This document shows positions 7,723-61,080 of a DNA stretch of 64,000 bases, in pieces (within the stretch, counting starts at the first letter, position 1; every line of letters begins with the position of its first letter). A program made the position numbers and the translations under genes. Below the pieces are notes generated by a model. The model had not been told where the DNA came from, ran no database searches, and saw nothing but the letters and a program-made list of their open reading frames with translations. This DNA is from an uncultured SAR86 cluster bacterium. GTDB lineage: Bacteria; Pseudomonadota; Gammaproteobacteria; Magnimaribacterales; D2472. The stretch is taken from positions 1,333-65,332 of the forward strand of contig CACJBC010000004.1 of NCBI GenBank assembly GCA_902591565.1. Reading direction: 5' to 3'.

Positions 7723-8391
7723 TTATGCCTCAGTAAGATTCATATCTTGAATTTTATAGATTTTATCAAAATTTCTTATGAAGTTACTATCATGAGTGGC
7801 AGTAATTAGAGCAATATTATATTTACGAGAAATATCCAATAGTAACTTTTGAATAATTTCTGCATTATCTTCGTCTAAATTACCTGTTGGCTCATCCAAA
7901 AAAATAAAATTAGGTTTATTAATTAAAGCTCTAGCAATGGCAACTCTTTGTTTTTCACCTCCTGATAACCTCCAAGGATGATGATTTAATCTATGAGAAA
8001 GACCAACCTCATCAATAATGTTTAAAACTTCTGATTTATTTGTTGATCTGTTTAAAATTTCGAGTGGTATAAGTACATTTTCCATTACTGTTAAATCTTC
8101 AAGTAAATGATGGAACTGATAAACAAAGCCAAAATTCTTTAATCTTAAAGAACTTAATTCACTATTATTTAAAGATTCTATTGATGTGTCATCATATTTA
8201 ATTAAACCAGAAGATGGTGTATCTAAAGATGCTAGTACTTGAAGAAGTGTTGATTTTCCTGCACCTGATCTTCCAGAAAGAGCAACCAAATCACCTCTTT
8301 TTATAGAAATATTAATTTTATTTAAAACTTCAATTTCAATACCATCAATAAAAAAAGATTTACTTAAATTAATTGATTGTATTTTATTCAT
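7723..8391 (-). CDS. lolD: Lipoprotein-releasing ABC transporter ATPase
   Basis: GRSGAGKST, GFVYQFHHLL (LolD motif), LSGGEKQR, DEPTGNLD; start at 8391 or 8406. Confidence 0.9.
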   Translation of the reverse strand: MNKIQSINLSKSFFIDGIEIEVLNKINISIKRGDLVALSGRSGAGKSTLLQVLASLDTPSSGLIKYDDTSIESLNNSELSSLRLKNFGFVYQFHHLLEDLTVMENVLIPLEILNRSTNKSEVLNIIDEVGLSHRLNHHPWRLSGGEKQRVAIARALINKPNFIFLDEPTGNLDEDNAEIIQKLLLDISRKYNIALITATHDSNFIRNFDKIYKIQDMNLTEA

Positions 8392-11080: not shown

Positions 11081-12094
11081 TTATCTTTTATCTCCGAGGT
11101 TGGCTATGTCTATTAATGACTCTGCCCACATATCAGAAAAATTTAAAGAAGGAACATAATCTAAAATCTCTCCTCCAGCATCGATAAATAATTCTTGATA
11201 TTCATCACCAATCTCTATTATTGTTTCCAAACAATCAGCTGTAAAAGCTGGTGAAAAAACTAGTACTTTTTTTTGATTTTTTGACGGCAATTTCTTTAAA
11301 ACTTTATCAGTAAATGGATCTAACCATTTATTTGTTAGTCTAGATTGAAACGTGACTTCATATTGTGAATCATCCAAGTTTAGTTTGTTTGCAATGAGTT
11401 TTGTTGTTTCATAAACAGTAGCTTTATAGCAATACTTATTTTTATTTGTAATTCCAAGCTCACAATCATTATCTGAGCATAGACTATCTGAGTAAACATT
11501 ATCTACGTGACTATTTGGTACCCCATGATAACTAAAAATTATTTTATCGTATGAAGCCATATCAAATTTTTTTGCTTTATCTACCCATGCATTGATAAAT
11601 AATGGATTATCATAAAATTGATTAATAAAGGTTACATTTGGTATAACCCACTTTTCTCCTAAACATCTTGAAACTTCCTTATATACTGAACCAGTAGTAG
11701 CGGCTGCGTAATGAGGAAATAAAGGCAGAACTATTAATTCATCTGGATTATCGCTAAGAATGTCATCCAATACACTTTTAATTGATGGTGATTGATATCG
11801 CATTGCAAATTTAACACTAACATTAGGTAACTTTTTCTGTAACACTTGCGTTAACTGTTCCGTATTATAAAGTAATGGCGATCCATATCGTTCACTCCAA
11901 ACTTTTTTGTAAATCTTTGCAGAACTAAAGGATCTAAATGGGCAAATTATAAAATTAACTAATAAAAACCTCAGTATTGGATTTATATCTAAAACCTTTT
12001 CATCAGATAGAAATTGTCTTAAATACTTAAAAACATGCAAATATGATGGGCTATCAGGCGTTCCAAGATTTATGAGTAAAAGCGTTTTTTTCAT
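11081..12094 (-). CDS. hemH: Ferrochelatase
   Basis: NLGTP, AMRY, SYHGVP, FQSR and FTADCLET motifs. Confidence 0.95.
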   Translation of the reverse strand: MKKTLLLINLGTPDSPSYLHVFKYLRQFLSDEKVLDINPILRFLLVNFIICPFRSFSSAKIYKKVWSERYGSPLLYNTEQLTQVLQKKLPNVSVKFAMRYQSPSIKSVLDDILSDNPDELIVLPLFPHYAAATTGSVYKEVSRCLGEKWVIPNVTFINQFYDNPLFINAWVDKAKKFDMASYDKIIFSYHGVPNSHVDNVYSDSLCSDNDCELGITNKNKYCYKATVYETTKLIANKLNLDDSQYEVTFQSRLTNKWLDPFTDKVLKKLPSKNQKKVLVFSPAFTADCLETIIEIGDEYQELFIDAGGEILDYVPSLNFSDMWAESLIDIANLGDKR

Positions 12095-55415: not shown

Positions 55416-56186
55416 TTATTTAGCTTCCATTCTCATTGCTGAATCAAGTCTAATGGTTTCTCCATTTAGATAGGTATTATTAATAATGTGTTCAGCAAGC
55501 TGGGCATACTCTTTTACATCTCCAAATCTGTGAGGGAACTGGGTTGACTTTAAAAGAGCTTCTTTGTTCTCTTCTTTTGCCAATGACATAAGTGGTGTAT
55601 CAAAGATACCAGGTGCAATAGTGCAAACTCTTATACTATGTCTGGCTAAATCTCTTGCTGAGGTTATAGTCATGCCTATAACACCAGCTTTTGAGGCGGC
55701 ATAAGCTGATTGACCAATCTGTCCTTCATAACCAGCAATAGATGCTGTATTAATAATTACGCCCTTTTCTCCTTTTTCATCTGGTTCATTAATATCAATT
55801 AATTCTGCTCCTAATCTCATAACATTAAATGTACCAACTAAATTTAGGTCAATTATGAATTTAAAAATATCCAATGGATGTGGGCCATTCTTTCCAAGTA
55901 TTCTCGCGCCATAACCTGTACCAGCACAATTCACAATAAAATTGAGTTTTCCATAGGTTTGTTTAATTTCTTTAATAGCATTTGTTACTGATTCTTCACT
56001 CATAACATCTGTTTTAACATATGTAACATTTTCAGAACCAAGTAAATCAATGACTTCTTTGGCTTTGTCATCATTAATATCTAAAATAGCAACTTTACAT
56101 CCTCTTGAAATGAAATGTTCAACAGTACCTCTTCCTAAGCCAGAAGCTCCGCCTGTTATTAATGCAATGTTATTTTTAAGATTCAT
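55416..56186 (-). CDS. SDR oxidoreductase (3-hydroxyacyl-CoA dehydrogenase type II-like)
   Basis: TGGASGLG, NCAG, GQIGQ.AYAASK, IAPG.F.TP and YLNGE.IRLD motifs. Confidence 0.9.
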   Translation of the reverse strand: MNLKNNIALITGGASGLGRGTVEHFISRGCKVAILDINDDKAKEVIDLLGSENVTYVKTDVMSEESVTNAIKEIKQTYGKLNFIVNCAGTGYGARILGKNGPHPLDIFKFIIDLNLVGTFNVMRLGAELIDINEPDEKGEKGVIINTASIAGYEGQIGQSAYAASKAGVIGMTITSARDLARHSIRVCTIAPGIFDTPLMSLAKEENKEALLKSTQFPHRFGDVKEYAQLAEHIINNTYLNGETIRLDSAMRMEAK

Positions 56187-56242
56187 GTATAACCTCCGTT
56201 TTTAATAAAATTATACTCTTTATACATACTAAAAAATATTTT

Positions 56243-56258
56243 TGGCACCTAAATTGCA
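56243..56258 (+). promoter_or_regulatory. Sigma54 (-24/-12) promoter of porin-glnK-amt operon
   Basis: TGGCACCTAAATTGCA with correct GG-N10-GC spacing. Confidence 0.8.
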
Positions 56259-56301
56259 TTAGTAAAAGCGAATATAAATTTTTCATATTAAGGAGAAAAA
56301 A

Positions 56302-56889
56302 ATGAAAAAATTGTTTTTACTTGTAGGGATCATATCTTTACCAACTTTTGCAGGAGTTAGTGCAAATGTTAGTTTTGCCTCAGATTATATCTGGAGAGGA
56401 ATGACACAAACTGACGGCCCAGCAATGTCAGGTGGTTTTGATTATGAATCAGAAAGTGGATTCTACGCAGGGATCTGGGGTTCAAATGTAAACTTTAGTG
56501 ATGGTGCGGGTAGTGAGTTAGATTACTATTTTGGATATGCTTTTGATTTTGGTTCAATTGGAGTAGATCTAGGATATGTTGCATTTGATTACCCAGAAGC
56601 AACTGATTTAGATTTTGAAGAGGTAGTTCTAGGTTTATCTTATGGTGACGTAGGTCTTACTTTTGCACTTGGTCAAGACAGTGCTCCAGACTATACAGAA
56701 GTTTCTTATGCATTAGGTGCTGTAGGTTTTGCTTATGGTCAGTACGACGATTATGGTGACAACTTAGTTATTTCATATGGATTCTCATGCGGATCATATG
56801 ATTGTGGTTTAGCTTACACTGATTTCTCAGCAGATGCGGCTGGCGCAGATGATGATTATTTAGTGTTTTCAATTTCAGCAAGTCTTTAA
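56302..56889 (+). CDS. TorF/Gcw_chp family putative porin
   Basis: Signal peptide; SDYIWRG.TQT..PA..GGFDY and GFYAG.WGSNV motifs; upstream of glnK. Confidence 0.9.
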   Translation: MKKLFLLVGIISLPTFAGVSANVSFASDYIWRGMTQTDGPAMSGGFDYESESGFYAGIWGSNVNFSDGAGSELDYYFGYAFDFGSIGVDLGYVAFDYPEATDLDFEEVVLGLSYGDVGLTFALGQDSAPDYTEVSYALGAVGFAYGQYDDYGDNLVISYGFSCGSYDCGLAYTDFSADAAGADDDYLVFSISASL

Positions 56890-56896
56890 TTCTTAA

Positions 56897-57253
<357 letters not shown>

Positions 57254-57263
57254 GGAGTAAAAG

Positions 57264-58505
57264 ATGGAAGAAATTGCATTTGCTTTAGATACATTTTACG
57301 CAGTAATGGCAGGAGCTCTTGTTATGTTTATGGCAGCTGGTTTTACCATGCTTGAAGCAGGACTTGTACAAAAGAAAGATGTATCAGAAATTGTAACGAA
57401 AAATATAGGCTTATACTCAATAGCTTGTATTATGTACTTAGCTTGTGGCTTTGTGATTATGTACCCTGGTTCATATATTATTGAAGGAGTTTTACCGTCA
57501 ATTCTTGGAACAAGTTCATTTGGGTTATCTACTTCATTACCTAATGAAGATATAGGTATGCCATATGGTATGGATTATTCACAACAAGCTGACTTCTTTT
57601 TTCAAGTAGTTTTTGTTGCTACGGCAATGTCGATAGTATCAGGAGCTGTTGCTGGAAGAATGAAACTTATACCTTTCTACTTATTTGCTATCGTATTAAC
57701 AGGTTTGATATATCCTATTCAAGGCGCATGGAATTGGGGTGGTGGTTTCTTAAGCGGAACTCTCGGCTACTCTGACTATGCAGGATCAGGAACAGTGCAT
57801 TTATGTGGTGCAGCTGCAGCATTAGCAGTTGTAACGGTTTTAGGACCAAGAAATGGTAAGTATGCTCCTGATGGTACATCTTTACCTATGCCTGGGTCTA
57901 ATATACCAATGGCTGCATTAGGTGTATGGATTCTTTGGTTAGGTTGGTTTGGATTCAATGGCGGATCTGAGTTAATTGTAAGCAACGAAGCATCTGCTAT
58001 TGCTGTTAGTCAGGTATTTATGAATACAAACATGGCTGCATGTGGTGGTGTTGTTGCTGCAATCTTAGTTAGCTTAATTAGAACAGGTAAAATGGATGTA
58101 ACAATGGCTATGAATGGAGCTATTGCTGGTCTAGTAGCAATCACAGCTGGTCCAAGTGCCCCATCTGGTGGTGCTGCAATCTTAATTGGAGCATTAGGTG
58201 GTGTCTTAGTATATTTCTCAATCTTATTTTTTGACAATGTACTAAAACTTGATGATCCAGTAGGCGCTATTTCAGCTCATGGTACTGTTGGTATTCTAGG
58301 TGTTATGGTTGTTCCATTTACATCTGATGCTTCATTCTTCGCACAATTCATTGGTGTAATTGCAATTGCTGGATTTACGTTTATTGCTAGTTTGTTAACA
58401 ATCTATGCAATTAACGCTGTATTGCCAATTAGAGCAAGTGATGACGAACAGTATGCTGGTCTTGATAGTTCTGAGATAGGAGTTGAAGCTTATCCAGAAT
58501 TTTAA
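57264..58505 (+). CDS. amt: Ammonium transporter (amt1)
   Basis: FFQVVF, DYAGSGTVH, GWFGFNGGS and DDPVGAISAHG motifs. Confidence 0.95.
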   Translation: MEEIAFALDTFYAVMAGALVMFMAAGFTMLEAGLVQKKDVSEIVTKNIGLYSIACIMYLACGFVIMYPGSYIIEGVLPSILGTSSFGLSTSLPNEDIGMPYGMDYSQQADFFFQVVFVATAMSIVSGAVAGRMKLIPFYLFAIVLTGLIYPIQGAWNWGGGFLSGTLGYSDYAGSGTVHLCGAAAALAVVTVLGPRNGKYAPDGTSLPMPGSNIPMAALGVWILWLGWFGFNGGSELIVSNEASAIAVSQVFMNTNMAACGGVVAAILVSLIRTGKMDVTMAMNGAIAGLVAITAGPSAPSGGAAILIGALGGVLVYFSILFFDNVLKLDDPVGAISAHGTVGILGVMVVPFTSDASFFAQFIGVIAIAGFTFIASLLTIYAINAVLPIRASDDEQYAGLDSSEIGVEAYPEF

Positions 58506-58506
58506 G

Positions 58507-58599
58507 TTTATGAGTTAGGTTCATATCTCCCCCTTTTATACCTAACTTATAAAAACACGAAAAGAGCCGTTATCTCCCCCTTTAACGGCTCTTTTTTTT
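58507..58599 (+). ncRNA. Twin-hairpin 3' element with repeated C-rich loop (candidate 3'UTR sRNA)
   Basis: Stems 58508-58520/58540-58552 and 58560-58572/58583-58595; TATCTCCCCCTTT at 58524 and 58571. Confidence 0.55.
58560..58599 (+). terminator. Intrinsic terminator of glnK-amt1 operon
   Basis: GAGCCGTTA/TAACGGCTC stem followed by T8. Confidence 0.85.
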
Positions 58600-58632
58600 G
58601 CACCCATTTTAAACATTTTTATTAAATATACA

Positions 58633-58648
58633 TGGCATATAAATTGCA
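58633..58648 (+). promoter_or_regulatory. Sigma54 (-24/-12) promoter of amt2
   Basis: TGGCATATAAATTGCA with GG-N10-GC spacing; 14/16 identical to the promoter at 56243. Confidence 0.75.
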
Positions 58649-58692
58649 TGTATGAATTGAATGTAATAAATATATATATTTTTTAGGGAGAT

Positions 58693-59976
58693 ATGATGAA
58701 TAAGATATATTTAATCTTTGGCAGCCTTTTGGCTACTCAATTTGTTCAGGGAGATGAAATTAATTCTGGTGATGCTGCTTGGATTTTAACATCTACTGCA
58801 TTGGTTCTTTTGATGACATTACCTGGACTAGCATTGTTTTATGGTGGATTAGTTCGATCAAAAAATGTTCTTTCTGTATTGATGCAATGTTTTACAATTG
58901 CTTGTTTAATGTCAGTTTGTTGGGTTGTATATGGTTACAGCTTAGCTTTTAAGGGTGATGGTTTATTTATTGGTGATCTTAGCGCACTATTTTTAAATGG
59001 TGTAGAAAGAGACTCGATTTCAGGAACACTACCTGAGTCAGTATTTATAACTTTCCAAATGACTTTTGCAATTATAACTCCAGCTCTTGTAGTAGGTGCA
59101 TTTGCAGAAAGAATGAAATTTACTGCTATGTGTATTTTTTCAGTTGCATGGTTTACTTTTGTATATCTTCCAGCATGTCATATGGTTTGGGGCGGTGGAT
59201 ATCTAGGCAGCATAGGTGTTATTGATTTTGCAGGCGGTCTTGTTGTGCACGCTACATGTGGAATTGGAGCGCTAGTAGCAGCAATCTACTTAGGCCAAAG
59301 AAATGGATTCATGAAATCACCAATGCCACCGCATAACAGAACAATGGTCATGATTGGTGCATCAATGCTATGGGTTGGCTGGTTTGGTTTTAATGCTGGT
59401 AGTGCTGTTGCTGCAGACAGTTCAGCAGGTATGGCTATGCTAGTAACTCATATTAGTGCTGCAACAGGTGCATTAACTTGGATGGCCATTGAATGGATTA
59501 AATCAGGTAAAGCAACAATGATTGGTATAGCTACAGGTATGGTAGCTGGTTTAGCTACTATCACACCAGCTTCTGGATCTGTTGGTCCGGCTGGTGCATT
59601 ATTAATTGGATTCTTAGCAGGATTAGTATGTTTTTATTCCACTCAGGCAGTTAAATCTTACTTCAAAATTGATGATTCGCTAGATGTATTTCCTGTTCAT
59701 GGTGTCGGCGGTATTCTTGGAATTATTATGATTGCCTTTGTTGGTAATCCTGATGGTTTTCTTGGATCAGGAGCTGCTGGTATTTCTGAAGATGGTGCAA
59801 TTGCACAGTTAATGATTCAACTTCAAGGAGTTATAGTTATCTCAGCTTATACAGCCATAGTTACATACGTAATTCTAAAATTAGTTAGCACAGTAACTGA
59901 TCTTAGAGCATCAGAAGAAGATGAGGATGTTGGTTTAGATATGAGTGAACATAACGAACAGGGTTATAGTTTATAA
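58693..59976 (+). CDS. amtB: Ammonium transporter (AmtB-like, amt2)
   Basis: PGLALFYGG, FQMTFAIITP, DFAGGLVVH and DDSLDVFPVHG motifs; signal-like N-terminus. Confidence 0.95.
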   Translation: MMNKIYLIFGSLLATQFVQGDEINSGDAAWILTSTALVLLMTLPGLALFYGGLVRSKNVLSVLMQCFTIACLMSVCWVVYGYSLAFKGDGLFIGDLSALFLNGVERDSISGTLPESVFITFQMTFAIITPALVVGAFAERMKFTAMCIFSVAWFTFVYLPACHMVWGGGYLGSIGVIDFAGGLVVHATCGIGALVAAIYLGQRNGFMKSPMPPHNRTMVMIGASMLWVGWFGFNAGSAVAADSSAGMAMLVTHISAATGALTWMAIEWIKSGKATMIGIATGMVAGLATITPASGSVGPAGALLIGFLAGLVCFYSTQAVKSYFKIDDSLDVFPVHGVGGILGIIMIAFVGNPDGFLGSGAAGISEDGAIAQLMIQLQGVIVISAYTAIVTYVILKLVSTVTDLRASEEDEDVGLDMSEHNEQGYSL

Positions 59977-61080
59977 AACAGAATTACTATATTGCTTTAA
60001 AAGAAAAGGATGCATTTCTTCTGGAATTAAATGCATCCTTTGATTCAAATACTCCATGGCTTCATCTATCTCATTTTCAGTGAATTCATGATTAGGTACG
60101 TTAATGCCTTGCATAATACATGCAGCTATATTAGTTGAATGGTTTTTATATGAGGTTTTAATTTTATTTGTTATTAACTCGGCTAGGTCATCATAGCTGT
60201 CTGATGCAAATTTCATTGGCTTACCAATATACAAATGAACGTTACCCTTATTTCCAGTAATACCATCTGAGATACTTAAAAGATCTTCTCTAGGCTCTTT
60301 TTCATAAACACTATTTATTGAGGTTAAATATAATTCCTTTGCTTTCAAAAGGTCATTTGGATCCTTTTCATAGGATATTGCGACAGGAATTAAAGAAATG
60401 TTATTAAAAAATTCACTTACTGACGTGTTTTTTCTTGCATTTAAATGAATCATTTTTAATACAGCTGAATCAGTATAATCAATACCGTCTTTAGACCTCC
60501 CCTGTTTTTGTGCAATCCATACTGACTGACTATTGTTTAAAATGGAATGAATAATAAATTCAGAAGCTAGATGTAAACTTTTATATATATCTTTTTTTGA
60601 TTTACCAGATCTATCAATTATGAAACTTTTATTGAGTCTCATTAAATCTGAAGCCCATTTTTCATTCATCAAGTTATTACCAACAGCATTATTAGTAGTA
60701 TTTATTCCACTTTGATGGAGTTTTAAATTTAACAAGGCAGAATCTAGAGTAATATCTCTATGGTTAGACAAAAATAGATAACCTTTCCCAATTTCGAGAT
60801 TCTCAATTCCTTCAATTGAAAAATTATCAATAGTTTTATTAACAACATCTAATACTATTGACTCAAAAAATTTTTGATAATCTTTTATTGTTTTAATATT
60901 TTTTGTTTTACGTCTTAAGAAAAATGCTACTAATTTCTCGATCATCGGAATCTTCTGTAGCCAGTTATTTTTATTGACCGTTAAAATAGTTTTTATAACG
61001 TCTTTATCTTTGGTTAGATCTAATAAAACTTTTTCAACTTCATGATCTTCGTAGGGACGTATAGAATCAAATTTACTCAC
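59971..61080 (-). CDS. Glycerolipid acyltransferase (PlsC superfamily)
   Basis: SNHRDITLD, WIAQKQGRSKDG and PVAISYE.DP motifs. Confidence 0.85.
   Translation of the reverse strand: MSKFDSIRPYEDHEVEKVLLDLTKDKDVIKTILTVNKNNWLQKIPMIEKLVAFFLRRKTKNIKTIKDYQKFFESIVLDVVNKTIDNFSIEGIENLEIGKGYLFLSNHRDITLDSALLNLKLHQSGINTTNNAVGNNLMNEKWASDLMRLNKSFIIDRSGKSKKDIYKSLHLASEFIIHSILNNSQSVWIAQKQGRSKDGIDYTDSAVLKMIHLNARKNTSVSEFFNNISLIPVAISYEKDPNDLLKAKELYLTSINSVYEKEPREDLLSISDGITGNKGNVHLYIGKPMKFASDSYDDLAELITNKIKTSYKNHSTNIAACIMQGINVPNHEFTENEIDEAMEYLNQRMHLIPEEMHPFLLKQYSNSVL

Follow-up and report, generated by a model that had tools for sequence, protein, structure and literature searches.

Within the window, the whole 64,000-nucleotide stretch of DNA that we analyzed, positions 56243-59976 hold two units on the + strand, each possessing its own sigma54-type promoter, and two RNA hairpins are located between them. 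The genome from which the window was taken is represented by an assembly of 1,073,052 bases that is 83% complete and has a G+C content of 32% (16% of the bases are C). The features of the locus are:

56243..56258, + strand: sigma54-type promoter TGGCAC-N5-TTGCA of the unit formed by the Gcw_chp porin-like gene, glnK and amt1 (from the sequence and a pattern scan; presumably active)
56302..56889, + strand: gene for a Gcw_chp/porin-like outer-membrane protein of 195 aa, the first in the unit (Pfam PF09694, 2.7e-18)
56886..56924, + strand: weak AU hairpin at the start of glnK, with a run of six C in its loop (fold)
56915..57253, + strand: glnK, P-II protein (Pfam PF00543, 7.5e-31)
57264..58505, + strand: amt1, ammonium transporter without signal peptide (Pfam PF00909, 6.8e-92)
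58503-58505, + strand: stop codon of amt1
58507..58553, + strand: hairpin 1, with a C-run in its 19-nt loop, the proposed anti-Shine-Dalgarno seed (RNAfold; covarying stems, 20 loci)
58559..58599, + strand: hairpin 2, intrinsic terminator of the glnK-amt1 unit (fold, our own terminator scan, stem covariation)
58633..58648, + strand: sigma54-type promoter of amt2, TGGCAT-N5-TTGCA (pattern scan; retained in nearly all related loci)
58686..58696, + strand: Shine-Dalgarno sequence and start codon of amt2 (ATG at 58693), the exact complement of loop positions 58521-58531
58693..59976, + strand: amt2, ammonium transporter with an N-terminal signal-like segment (Pfam PF00909, 3.2e-117)

The sigma54-type promoters of the two units match the GG-N10-GC pattern at 56243 and 58633; the rpoN gene is present in the genome. 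In the 83%-complete assembly to which the window belongs, we found no sigma54 activator domain, but each of the 24 other genomes of the genus (24/24) contains one copy. A single nitrogen-type activator is likely, and we infer that it is NtrC. Judged from the sequence, the sigma54 regulon is very small and centered on nitrogen uptake. The assembly contains 12 sigma54-type promoter matches, about six of which are positioned before genes (e.g., at contig positions C2:41718 on the - strand, and C3:47139, C8:32193 and C15:23595 on the + strand).

Directly behind amt1, a reading of the DNA made from the sequence only (the sequence-only reading) had noted two 13-bp stems with unrelated arms. Both hairpins were recovered by RNAfold, with stems of 14 bp instead of 13 bp. 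In hairpin 1, the arms 58507-58520 and 58540-58553 form 14 bp, including one G-U pair, and enclose a loop of 19 nt (58521-58539); in hairpin 2, the arms 58559-58572 and 58583-58596 form 14 bp around a C-rich loop of 10 nt and are followed by T8, the T-run reaching to position 58599. The G-U pair in stem 1 had been taken to favor the + strand, and the folding energies point in the same direction: the + strand folds with -33.5 kcal/mol (z -8.5; 0 of 200 shuffles were equally good), whereas the fold of the - strand is much weaker (-27.1 kcal/mol, z -3.3). An identical 13-mer is indeed present in both loops, at 58524-58536 and at 58571-58583. Its 10-nt core exists in only two exact copies, both of them local, in the whole assembly of 1,073,052 bases, and a repeated or mobile element was rejected on this ground. 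Intergenic hairpins that combine a C5 loop with a stem of at least 8 bp are few in this genome.

Hairpin 2 is an intrinsic terminator: its 14-bp stem contains G+C and is followed by the run of eight T that had been read from the sequence. Since no U-run follows the stem of hairpin 1 (the next letters are AACACGAAAAG), this first hairpin is not a terminator. An automated terminator scan listed none, but it allowed loops of 3-8 nt only; because this limit leaves out hairpin 2 with its 10-nt loop, the empty scan is no evidence against a terminator. The element 58507-58599 thus sits between the stop codon of amt1 and the terminator and shares the latter with the messenger, as is expected of a small RNA derived from a 3'UTR. 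Around the end of amt1, a promoter scan of the + strand gave no sigma70-like hit. No Rfam family reached its gathering score, whether the scan covered 56000-60500 (E<=10) or the window in full, and the best sub-threshold matches were to ES056 (26.4 bits, cut-off 43) and BjrC1505 (18.8 bits, cut-off 50); the sequence-only reading, too, had not recognized the element as a named family. Likewise, a literature search found no published description of this amt1 3'UTR element. We also considered an antisense frame of 31 aa (58429-58524, - strand) that starts at an ATG complementary to loop 1, behind a G-rich site; it was rejected because the corresponding CAT in the loop exists only in three loci (L002, L003, and L005).

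Positions 58521-58531 of loop 1 are the exact reverse complement of 58686-58696, so that the 11-nt complementarity to the Shine-Dalgarno sequence and ATG of amt2 that had been proposed from the sequence is confirmed. The predicted duplex between loop 1 and the amt2 leader has an energy of -18.7 kcal/mol and takes rank 6 among 1264 candidate start regions (mean -6.0, sd 3.4), and none of 300 dinucleotide shuffles of the amt2 leader was as good as the true leader (p=0.003). A chance origin of the match is unlikely in view of this rank and of the shuffles. Matches of at least 11 nt to the loop are not rare genome-wide, four non-self places being found; what is rare is that such a match should fall on the ribosome site of the gene immediately downstream. 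An 11-bp helix formed within a closed 19-nt loop is sterically strained, which counts against the proposed pairing.

A DNA search covered 61 genomes, namely that of the window together with 60 relatives, and gave a match in 51; sequences 3' of amt1 were taken from those 29 loci in which the end of the gene is included. The hairpin feature is real and conserved. A hairpin lies directly 3' of the amt1 stop in 20 of the 29 loci (L002-L021); its stems measure 7-14 bp and have 11 different inner-stem sequences, and in all 20 of these loci a run of 4-7 C, mostly with T-A next to it, is unpaired in the loop of hairpin 1, as befits a conserved seed. RNAalifold, applied to an unguided MAFFT alignment of the 20 loci, predicts both hairpins, and compensatory changes are found in 11 of 15 pairs. 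This is the independent figure, as the 77 canonical pairs among 77 follow from the way in which the stems were defined and are no test; an earlier MAFFT alignment of trimmed hairpins was anchored on the loops, with the stems out of register, and was excluded from the pair counts.

In the remaining nine loci, amt1 is likewise followed by a C-rich stretch, though its context differs: it lies within the loop of the terminator in L022 and L024, is found in both loops in L025 and in a second hairpin in L026, is unpaired 5' of the terminator in L027 and L028, belongs to a weak hairpin of 5 bp in L029 and in L031, and is located farther from amt1 in L030. C-rich loops are scarce among terminators of the window's genome, where CCC is found in the loop of 3 of 65 terminator-like hairpins identified in our own scan; by contrast, 13 of 20 orthologous amt1 terminators carry CCC in the loop (counted by script; L013 was left unscored by the T-tail rule, though its loop has CCC). 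The identity of the two 13-mers is lost already in the closest relative (L003, 96% identical), in which loop 2 differs. Of the conservation that the sequence-only reading had asked for, the C-run and the covarying stems are thus borne out, whereas the exact 13-mer is not kept.

We then compared the hairpin loops of the 3'UTR with the leader behind the next sigma54-type promoter in 21 loci, all of which have amt2 or a second glnK-amt2 unit directly downstream, using 300 dinucleotide shuffles of the leader as the null. Loop-leader pairing was better than expected (p<=0.05) in 16 of the 21 loci, and no better than the shuffles at the 0.05 level in L009 (0.17), L011 (0.13), L012 (0.056), L013 (0.08), and L022 (0.44). 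The shuffled null breaks G-runs, so that the p-values are flattered, and related genomes are not independent of each other; we consequently treat the pairing figures as indications, not as proofs. The complementarity is maintained through at least six different sequence pairs. In the window's clade, the pairing stretch of the loop is complementary to GGGAGATA; in L010, an unrelated A/T-rich stretch of 11 nt that runs into the ribosome site takes its place; the pairing comprises 12+7 bp in L020; and in L025, where another glnK lies upstream of amt2, 9 nt pair with the ribosome site of this additional glnK. The terminator loop is the pairing partner in L024 and in the L012 clade, and in the latter loop 1 itself pairs weakly with the leader (-5 to -6 kcal/mol). 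The complementarity to amt2 is retained in relatives partly through other sequences, and the exact 11-nt match is confined to the near relatives of the window. When all loops were tabulated against all leaders, L020 and the window's clade clearly preferred their own leader, and L010 did so only marginally. The mean cognate energy of -12.1 kcal/mol differs little from the non-cognate mean of -10.4 (sd 3.6), since any C-run fits any G-rich site.

The reading that we prefer, and to which we assign a probability of about 0.5, is that the amt1 3'UTR serves as an anti-Shine-Dalgarno module that would pair with G-rich ribosome-binding sites without the aid of Hfq, and for which amt2, where present, would be the co-evolving partner. 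In this untranslated end of the messenger from glnK and amt1, hairpin 1 displays the C-run and its flanking bases in a large loop, and the terminator hairpin often displays a second C-rich loop. Given its sigma54-type promoter, the unit is presumably made under nitrogen limitation. The end of the RNA would then pair with G-rich ribosome-binding sites and block initiation, acting either as part of the messenger or, once released, as a separate RNA about 90 nt long. In loci where amt2 is the next gene, the amt2 leader would be a preferred partner, and the two ammonium transporters would in this way be cross-regulated. Hfq would not be required for any of these steps: a Pfam search of 41 genomes of the order, among them 21 that are at least 90% complete, found it in none, and this argues against an Hfq-dependent RNA.

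Coding parts of glnK, amt1, and amt2 were detected in assembled contigs of four metatranscriptome runs from four studies, mostly as sequences of relatives that are 90-99% alike. One relative's contig (run X5) extends amt1 into hairpin 1, a contig from which neither strand nor ends can be read and for which DNA carry-over is possible. As the RNA contigs are assembled, starts, ends, strand and level are not readable from them, and the fact that positions 58613-58739 are covered by none of the contigs of the four runs was not taken as evidence.

The genomic neighborhood would also allow a narrower role, which we consider improbable: loop 1 might merely mask the ribosome site of amt2 in cis on read-through transcripts, with no small RNA and no other targets, and amt2 would then be translated only from messengers begun at its own promoter. 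The presence of amt2 or a second glnK-amt2 unit directly downstream in 21 of 21 tested loci is in keeping with such a role, as is the way in which the complementarity tracks the leader of this neighbor. Yet the terminator that separates the two units is strong (14 bp and T8), and both units carry the same type of promoter, so that insulating them from each other gains little. Furthermore, in five genomes the amt1-type gene is the only one found (G009, 86% complete; G028, 96%; G035, 94%; G031, 92%; G030, 93%), and the C-run loop is nevertheless retained behind it (L015, L029, L031, L030, and L026, respectively, belong to this group of loci). Since the loop is kept without amt2, amt2 cannot be its whole purpose.

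Further genes with G-run ribosome sites are likely to be additional targets of the proposed anti-Shine-Dalgarno module. In about 45 genes of the window's genome, the ribosome site is a run of 4-6 G, often with A/T-A before it. With the canonical 3' end of its 16S rRNA, the ribosome pairs less well with these G-run sites than a C-run does. Among the ten top-ranked predictions are a glycosidase, a saccharopine-dehydrogenase-like protein, GSTs, a DDAH-like enzyme and a glutamate-type dehydrogenase, and no clear theme, whether of nitrogen or otherwise, was found among these ten. The class of genes with G-run ribosome sites includes several large secreted proteins and is unusual for a genome of 32% G+C with a canonical 16S 3' end.

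The C-run motif recurs at the other end of the same unit. The glnK gene lacks a Shine-Dalgarno sequence, and its start is embedded in a hairpin: the gene before glnK has its stop codon in the 5' arm, the 3' arm contains codons 1-3 of glnK, and the loop includes the C-run followed by TATT. This arrangement suggests, from the sequence, translational coupling of glnK with the upstream gene. A run of at least four C precedes glnK in 14 of 30 glnK rows, and in all 16 related loci (16/16) that have a C-run of at least three at the glnK start, it is unpaired in a loop.

In addition, we observed two paralogous stand-alone candidate small RNAs, one at L113:295-375 on the + strand (G000 contig C18, ~11320-11400) and the other at L112:216-331 on the - strand (G000 contig C1, ~110915-111030). 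They consist of a hairpin of 7-10 bp with an invariant 19-nt C-run loop, followed by a G+C-rich terminator with a covarying stem. A blastn match to them is present in 24 of 24 genomes of the genus and in 33 of 36 of the family, often in two copies, and neither has a match in Rfam. The invariant loop suggests that a C-run device is in use in this lineage. Upstream of the stand-alone RNA, a conserved A/T palindrome overlaps the promoter and resembles a Fur site; the genome contains a FUR gene. By its sequence, this RNA may be an iron-controlled anti-ribosome-site small RNA. On G000 contig C2 (~7850-8050, - strand), part of the loop motif of this RNA is repeated in the loop of a small hairpin, which belongs to a leader preceded by a sigma70-like promoter. 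Between this hairpin and the following gene, which has a GGAGGA site, there is a second CU-rich stretch; the arrangement of this leader hints that it may be self-masking. An abundant non-coding RNA near sugar genes is mentioned for SAR86 in the accessible part of one report (PMC3358033).

The sense-strand C-run at the start of glnK is the same motif as that behind amt1 and is not accounted for by pairing with ribosome sites; for glnK itself, a role as anti-ribosome-site seed is impossible. This copy speaks for another explanation, namely that an RNA-binding protein recognizes hairpin loops in which U-A comes after the C-run; this protein would act on the glnK start hairpin, on the 3' end of amt1 and on the stand-alone small RNAs by a logic like that of CsrA and its decoy RNAs, the fit to G-rich sites being secondary. 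The motif is indeed unpaired in a loop in all three contexts (glnK start, amt1 3'UTR, and loop of the small RNA). We nevertheless regard a protein site as unlikely, given that there is no candidate for such a protein (searches of the window's genome, 83% complete as assembled, found none of CsrA, ProQ, and Hfq) and that a protein site alone would not predict loop flanks that co-vary with the amt2 leader. A wider possibility, to which we likewise give little credence, is a lineage-wide code in which a loop with a C-run and U-A would be read by the roughly 45 messengers with G-run sites or by a protein; it would mark the nitrogen arm, i.e., the amt1 3'UTR and the start hairpin of the Shine-Dalgarno-less glnK, and also the two-copy small RNA, which is probably iron-controlled. 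If this were true, a single group of targets would respond to both nitrogen and iron status.

Least probable of all is that the hairpins are mere RNA-end architecture that stops transcription and guards the messenger from 3' exonucleases, the loops and the amt2 match having no regulatory role: hairpin 2 is a textbook intrinsic terminator and tandem 3' hairpins can stabilize messengers, but C is rare in this genome (16%), CCC is scarce in terminator-like loops (3/65), the C-run persists while the stems turn over, and pairing with the neighboring leader recurs in different sequences.

Several known regulatory RNAs share traits with the anti-Shine-Dalgarno module that we propose for the amt1 3'UTR. 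The AbcR RNAs of alphaproteobacteria carry an anti-Shine-Dalgarno sequence in hairpin loops and are encoded by stand-alone multi-copy genes. NrsZ of Pseudomonas is a sigma54/NtrC-dependent nitrogen-stress small RNA with repeated stem-loops that differs from the amt1 element in having its own gene and promoter; so far as Rfam includes NrsZ, our scans yielded no match to it. As far as the accessible parts of the reports on GlnZ go (PMC9731577; bioRxiv 10.1101/2022.04.01.486790), this enterobacterial RNA from the glnA 3'UTR likewise forms the 3' end of a messenger for nitrogen assimilation, shares its terminator with this messenger, and is supplied according to the nitrogen-controlled promoter of its parent gene. 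Its parent gene is glnA and not amt1, however, and there is no match in sequence or model. To go by titles, GlnZ features in studies of the Hfq interactome, whereas Hfq was not found in the lineage studied here; processing has been shown for GlnZ and is proposed for the amt1 element; and unlike in GlnZ, as portrayed in these parts of the reports, the putative seed of the amt1 element is a hairpin loop aimed at ribosome sites.

With regard to the seed, RsaE/RoxS, IsrR and LhrC of the Firmicutes also possess C-rich loop motifs, often more than one per RNA, according to the accessible portions of their descriptions (PMC2790875; PMC8216469; PMC9410917; PMC4132741), and the partner to be expected both for these RNAs and for the amt1 element is a G-rich Shine-Dalgarno region. 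Hfq-independent expression is stated in the available text of one of these papers (PMC2790875). These RNAs come from another phylum and are free-standing genes, whereas the amt1 element is gammaproteobacterial and located within a 3'UTR, and no Rfam homology connects them. The cuckoo RNAs of alphaproteobacteria, in the portion of the source that is accessible (PMC4615179), have anti-Shine-Dalgarno hairpin loops with variable stems around conserved loops, just as the amt1 element does, but they are stand-alone multi-copy genes of another class, and no Rfam match at threshold was found here. With its exposed loop motif and its complementarity to ribosome sites, the amt1 element shows the hallmarks of C-rich-loop anti-Shine-Dalgarno RNAs, with no covariance-model match. 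By analogy, then, it resembles GlnZ in location and the C-rich-loop small RNAs of the Firmicutes and the cuckoo RNAs in its seed, and it is a member of none of them by model match.

The amt1 3'UTR offers a clean natural case of a loop and its target that co-evolve via different sequences. Judged from its sequence features, the element probably tunes nitrogen uptake as a regulatory RNA. Its hosts are uncultured marine and brackish Gammaproteobacteria with very small genomes and few regulators. Few regulatory circuits are known for such cells; a conserved RNA device linking a pair of ammonium transporters would be among these few, and it bears on the way in which the cells handle nitrogen scarcity.
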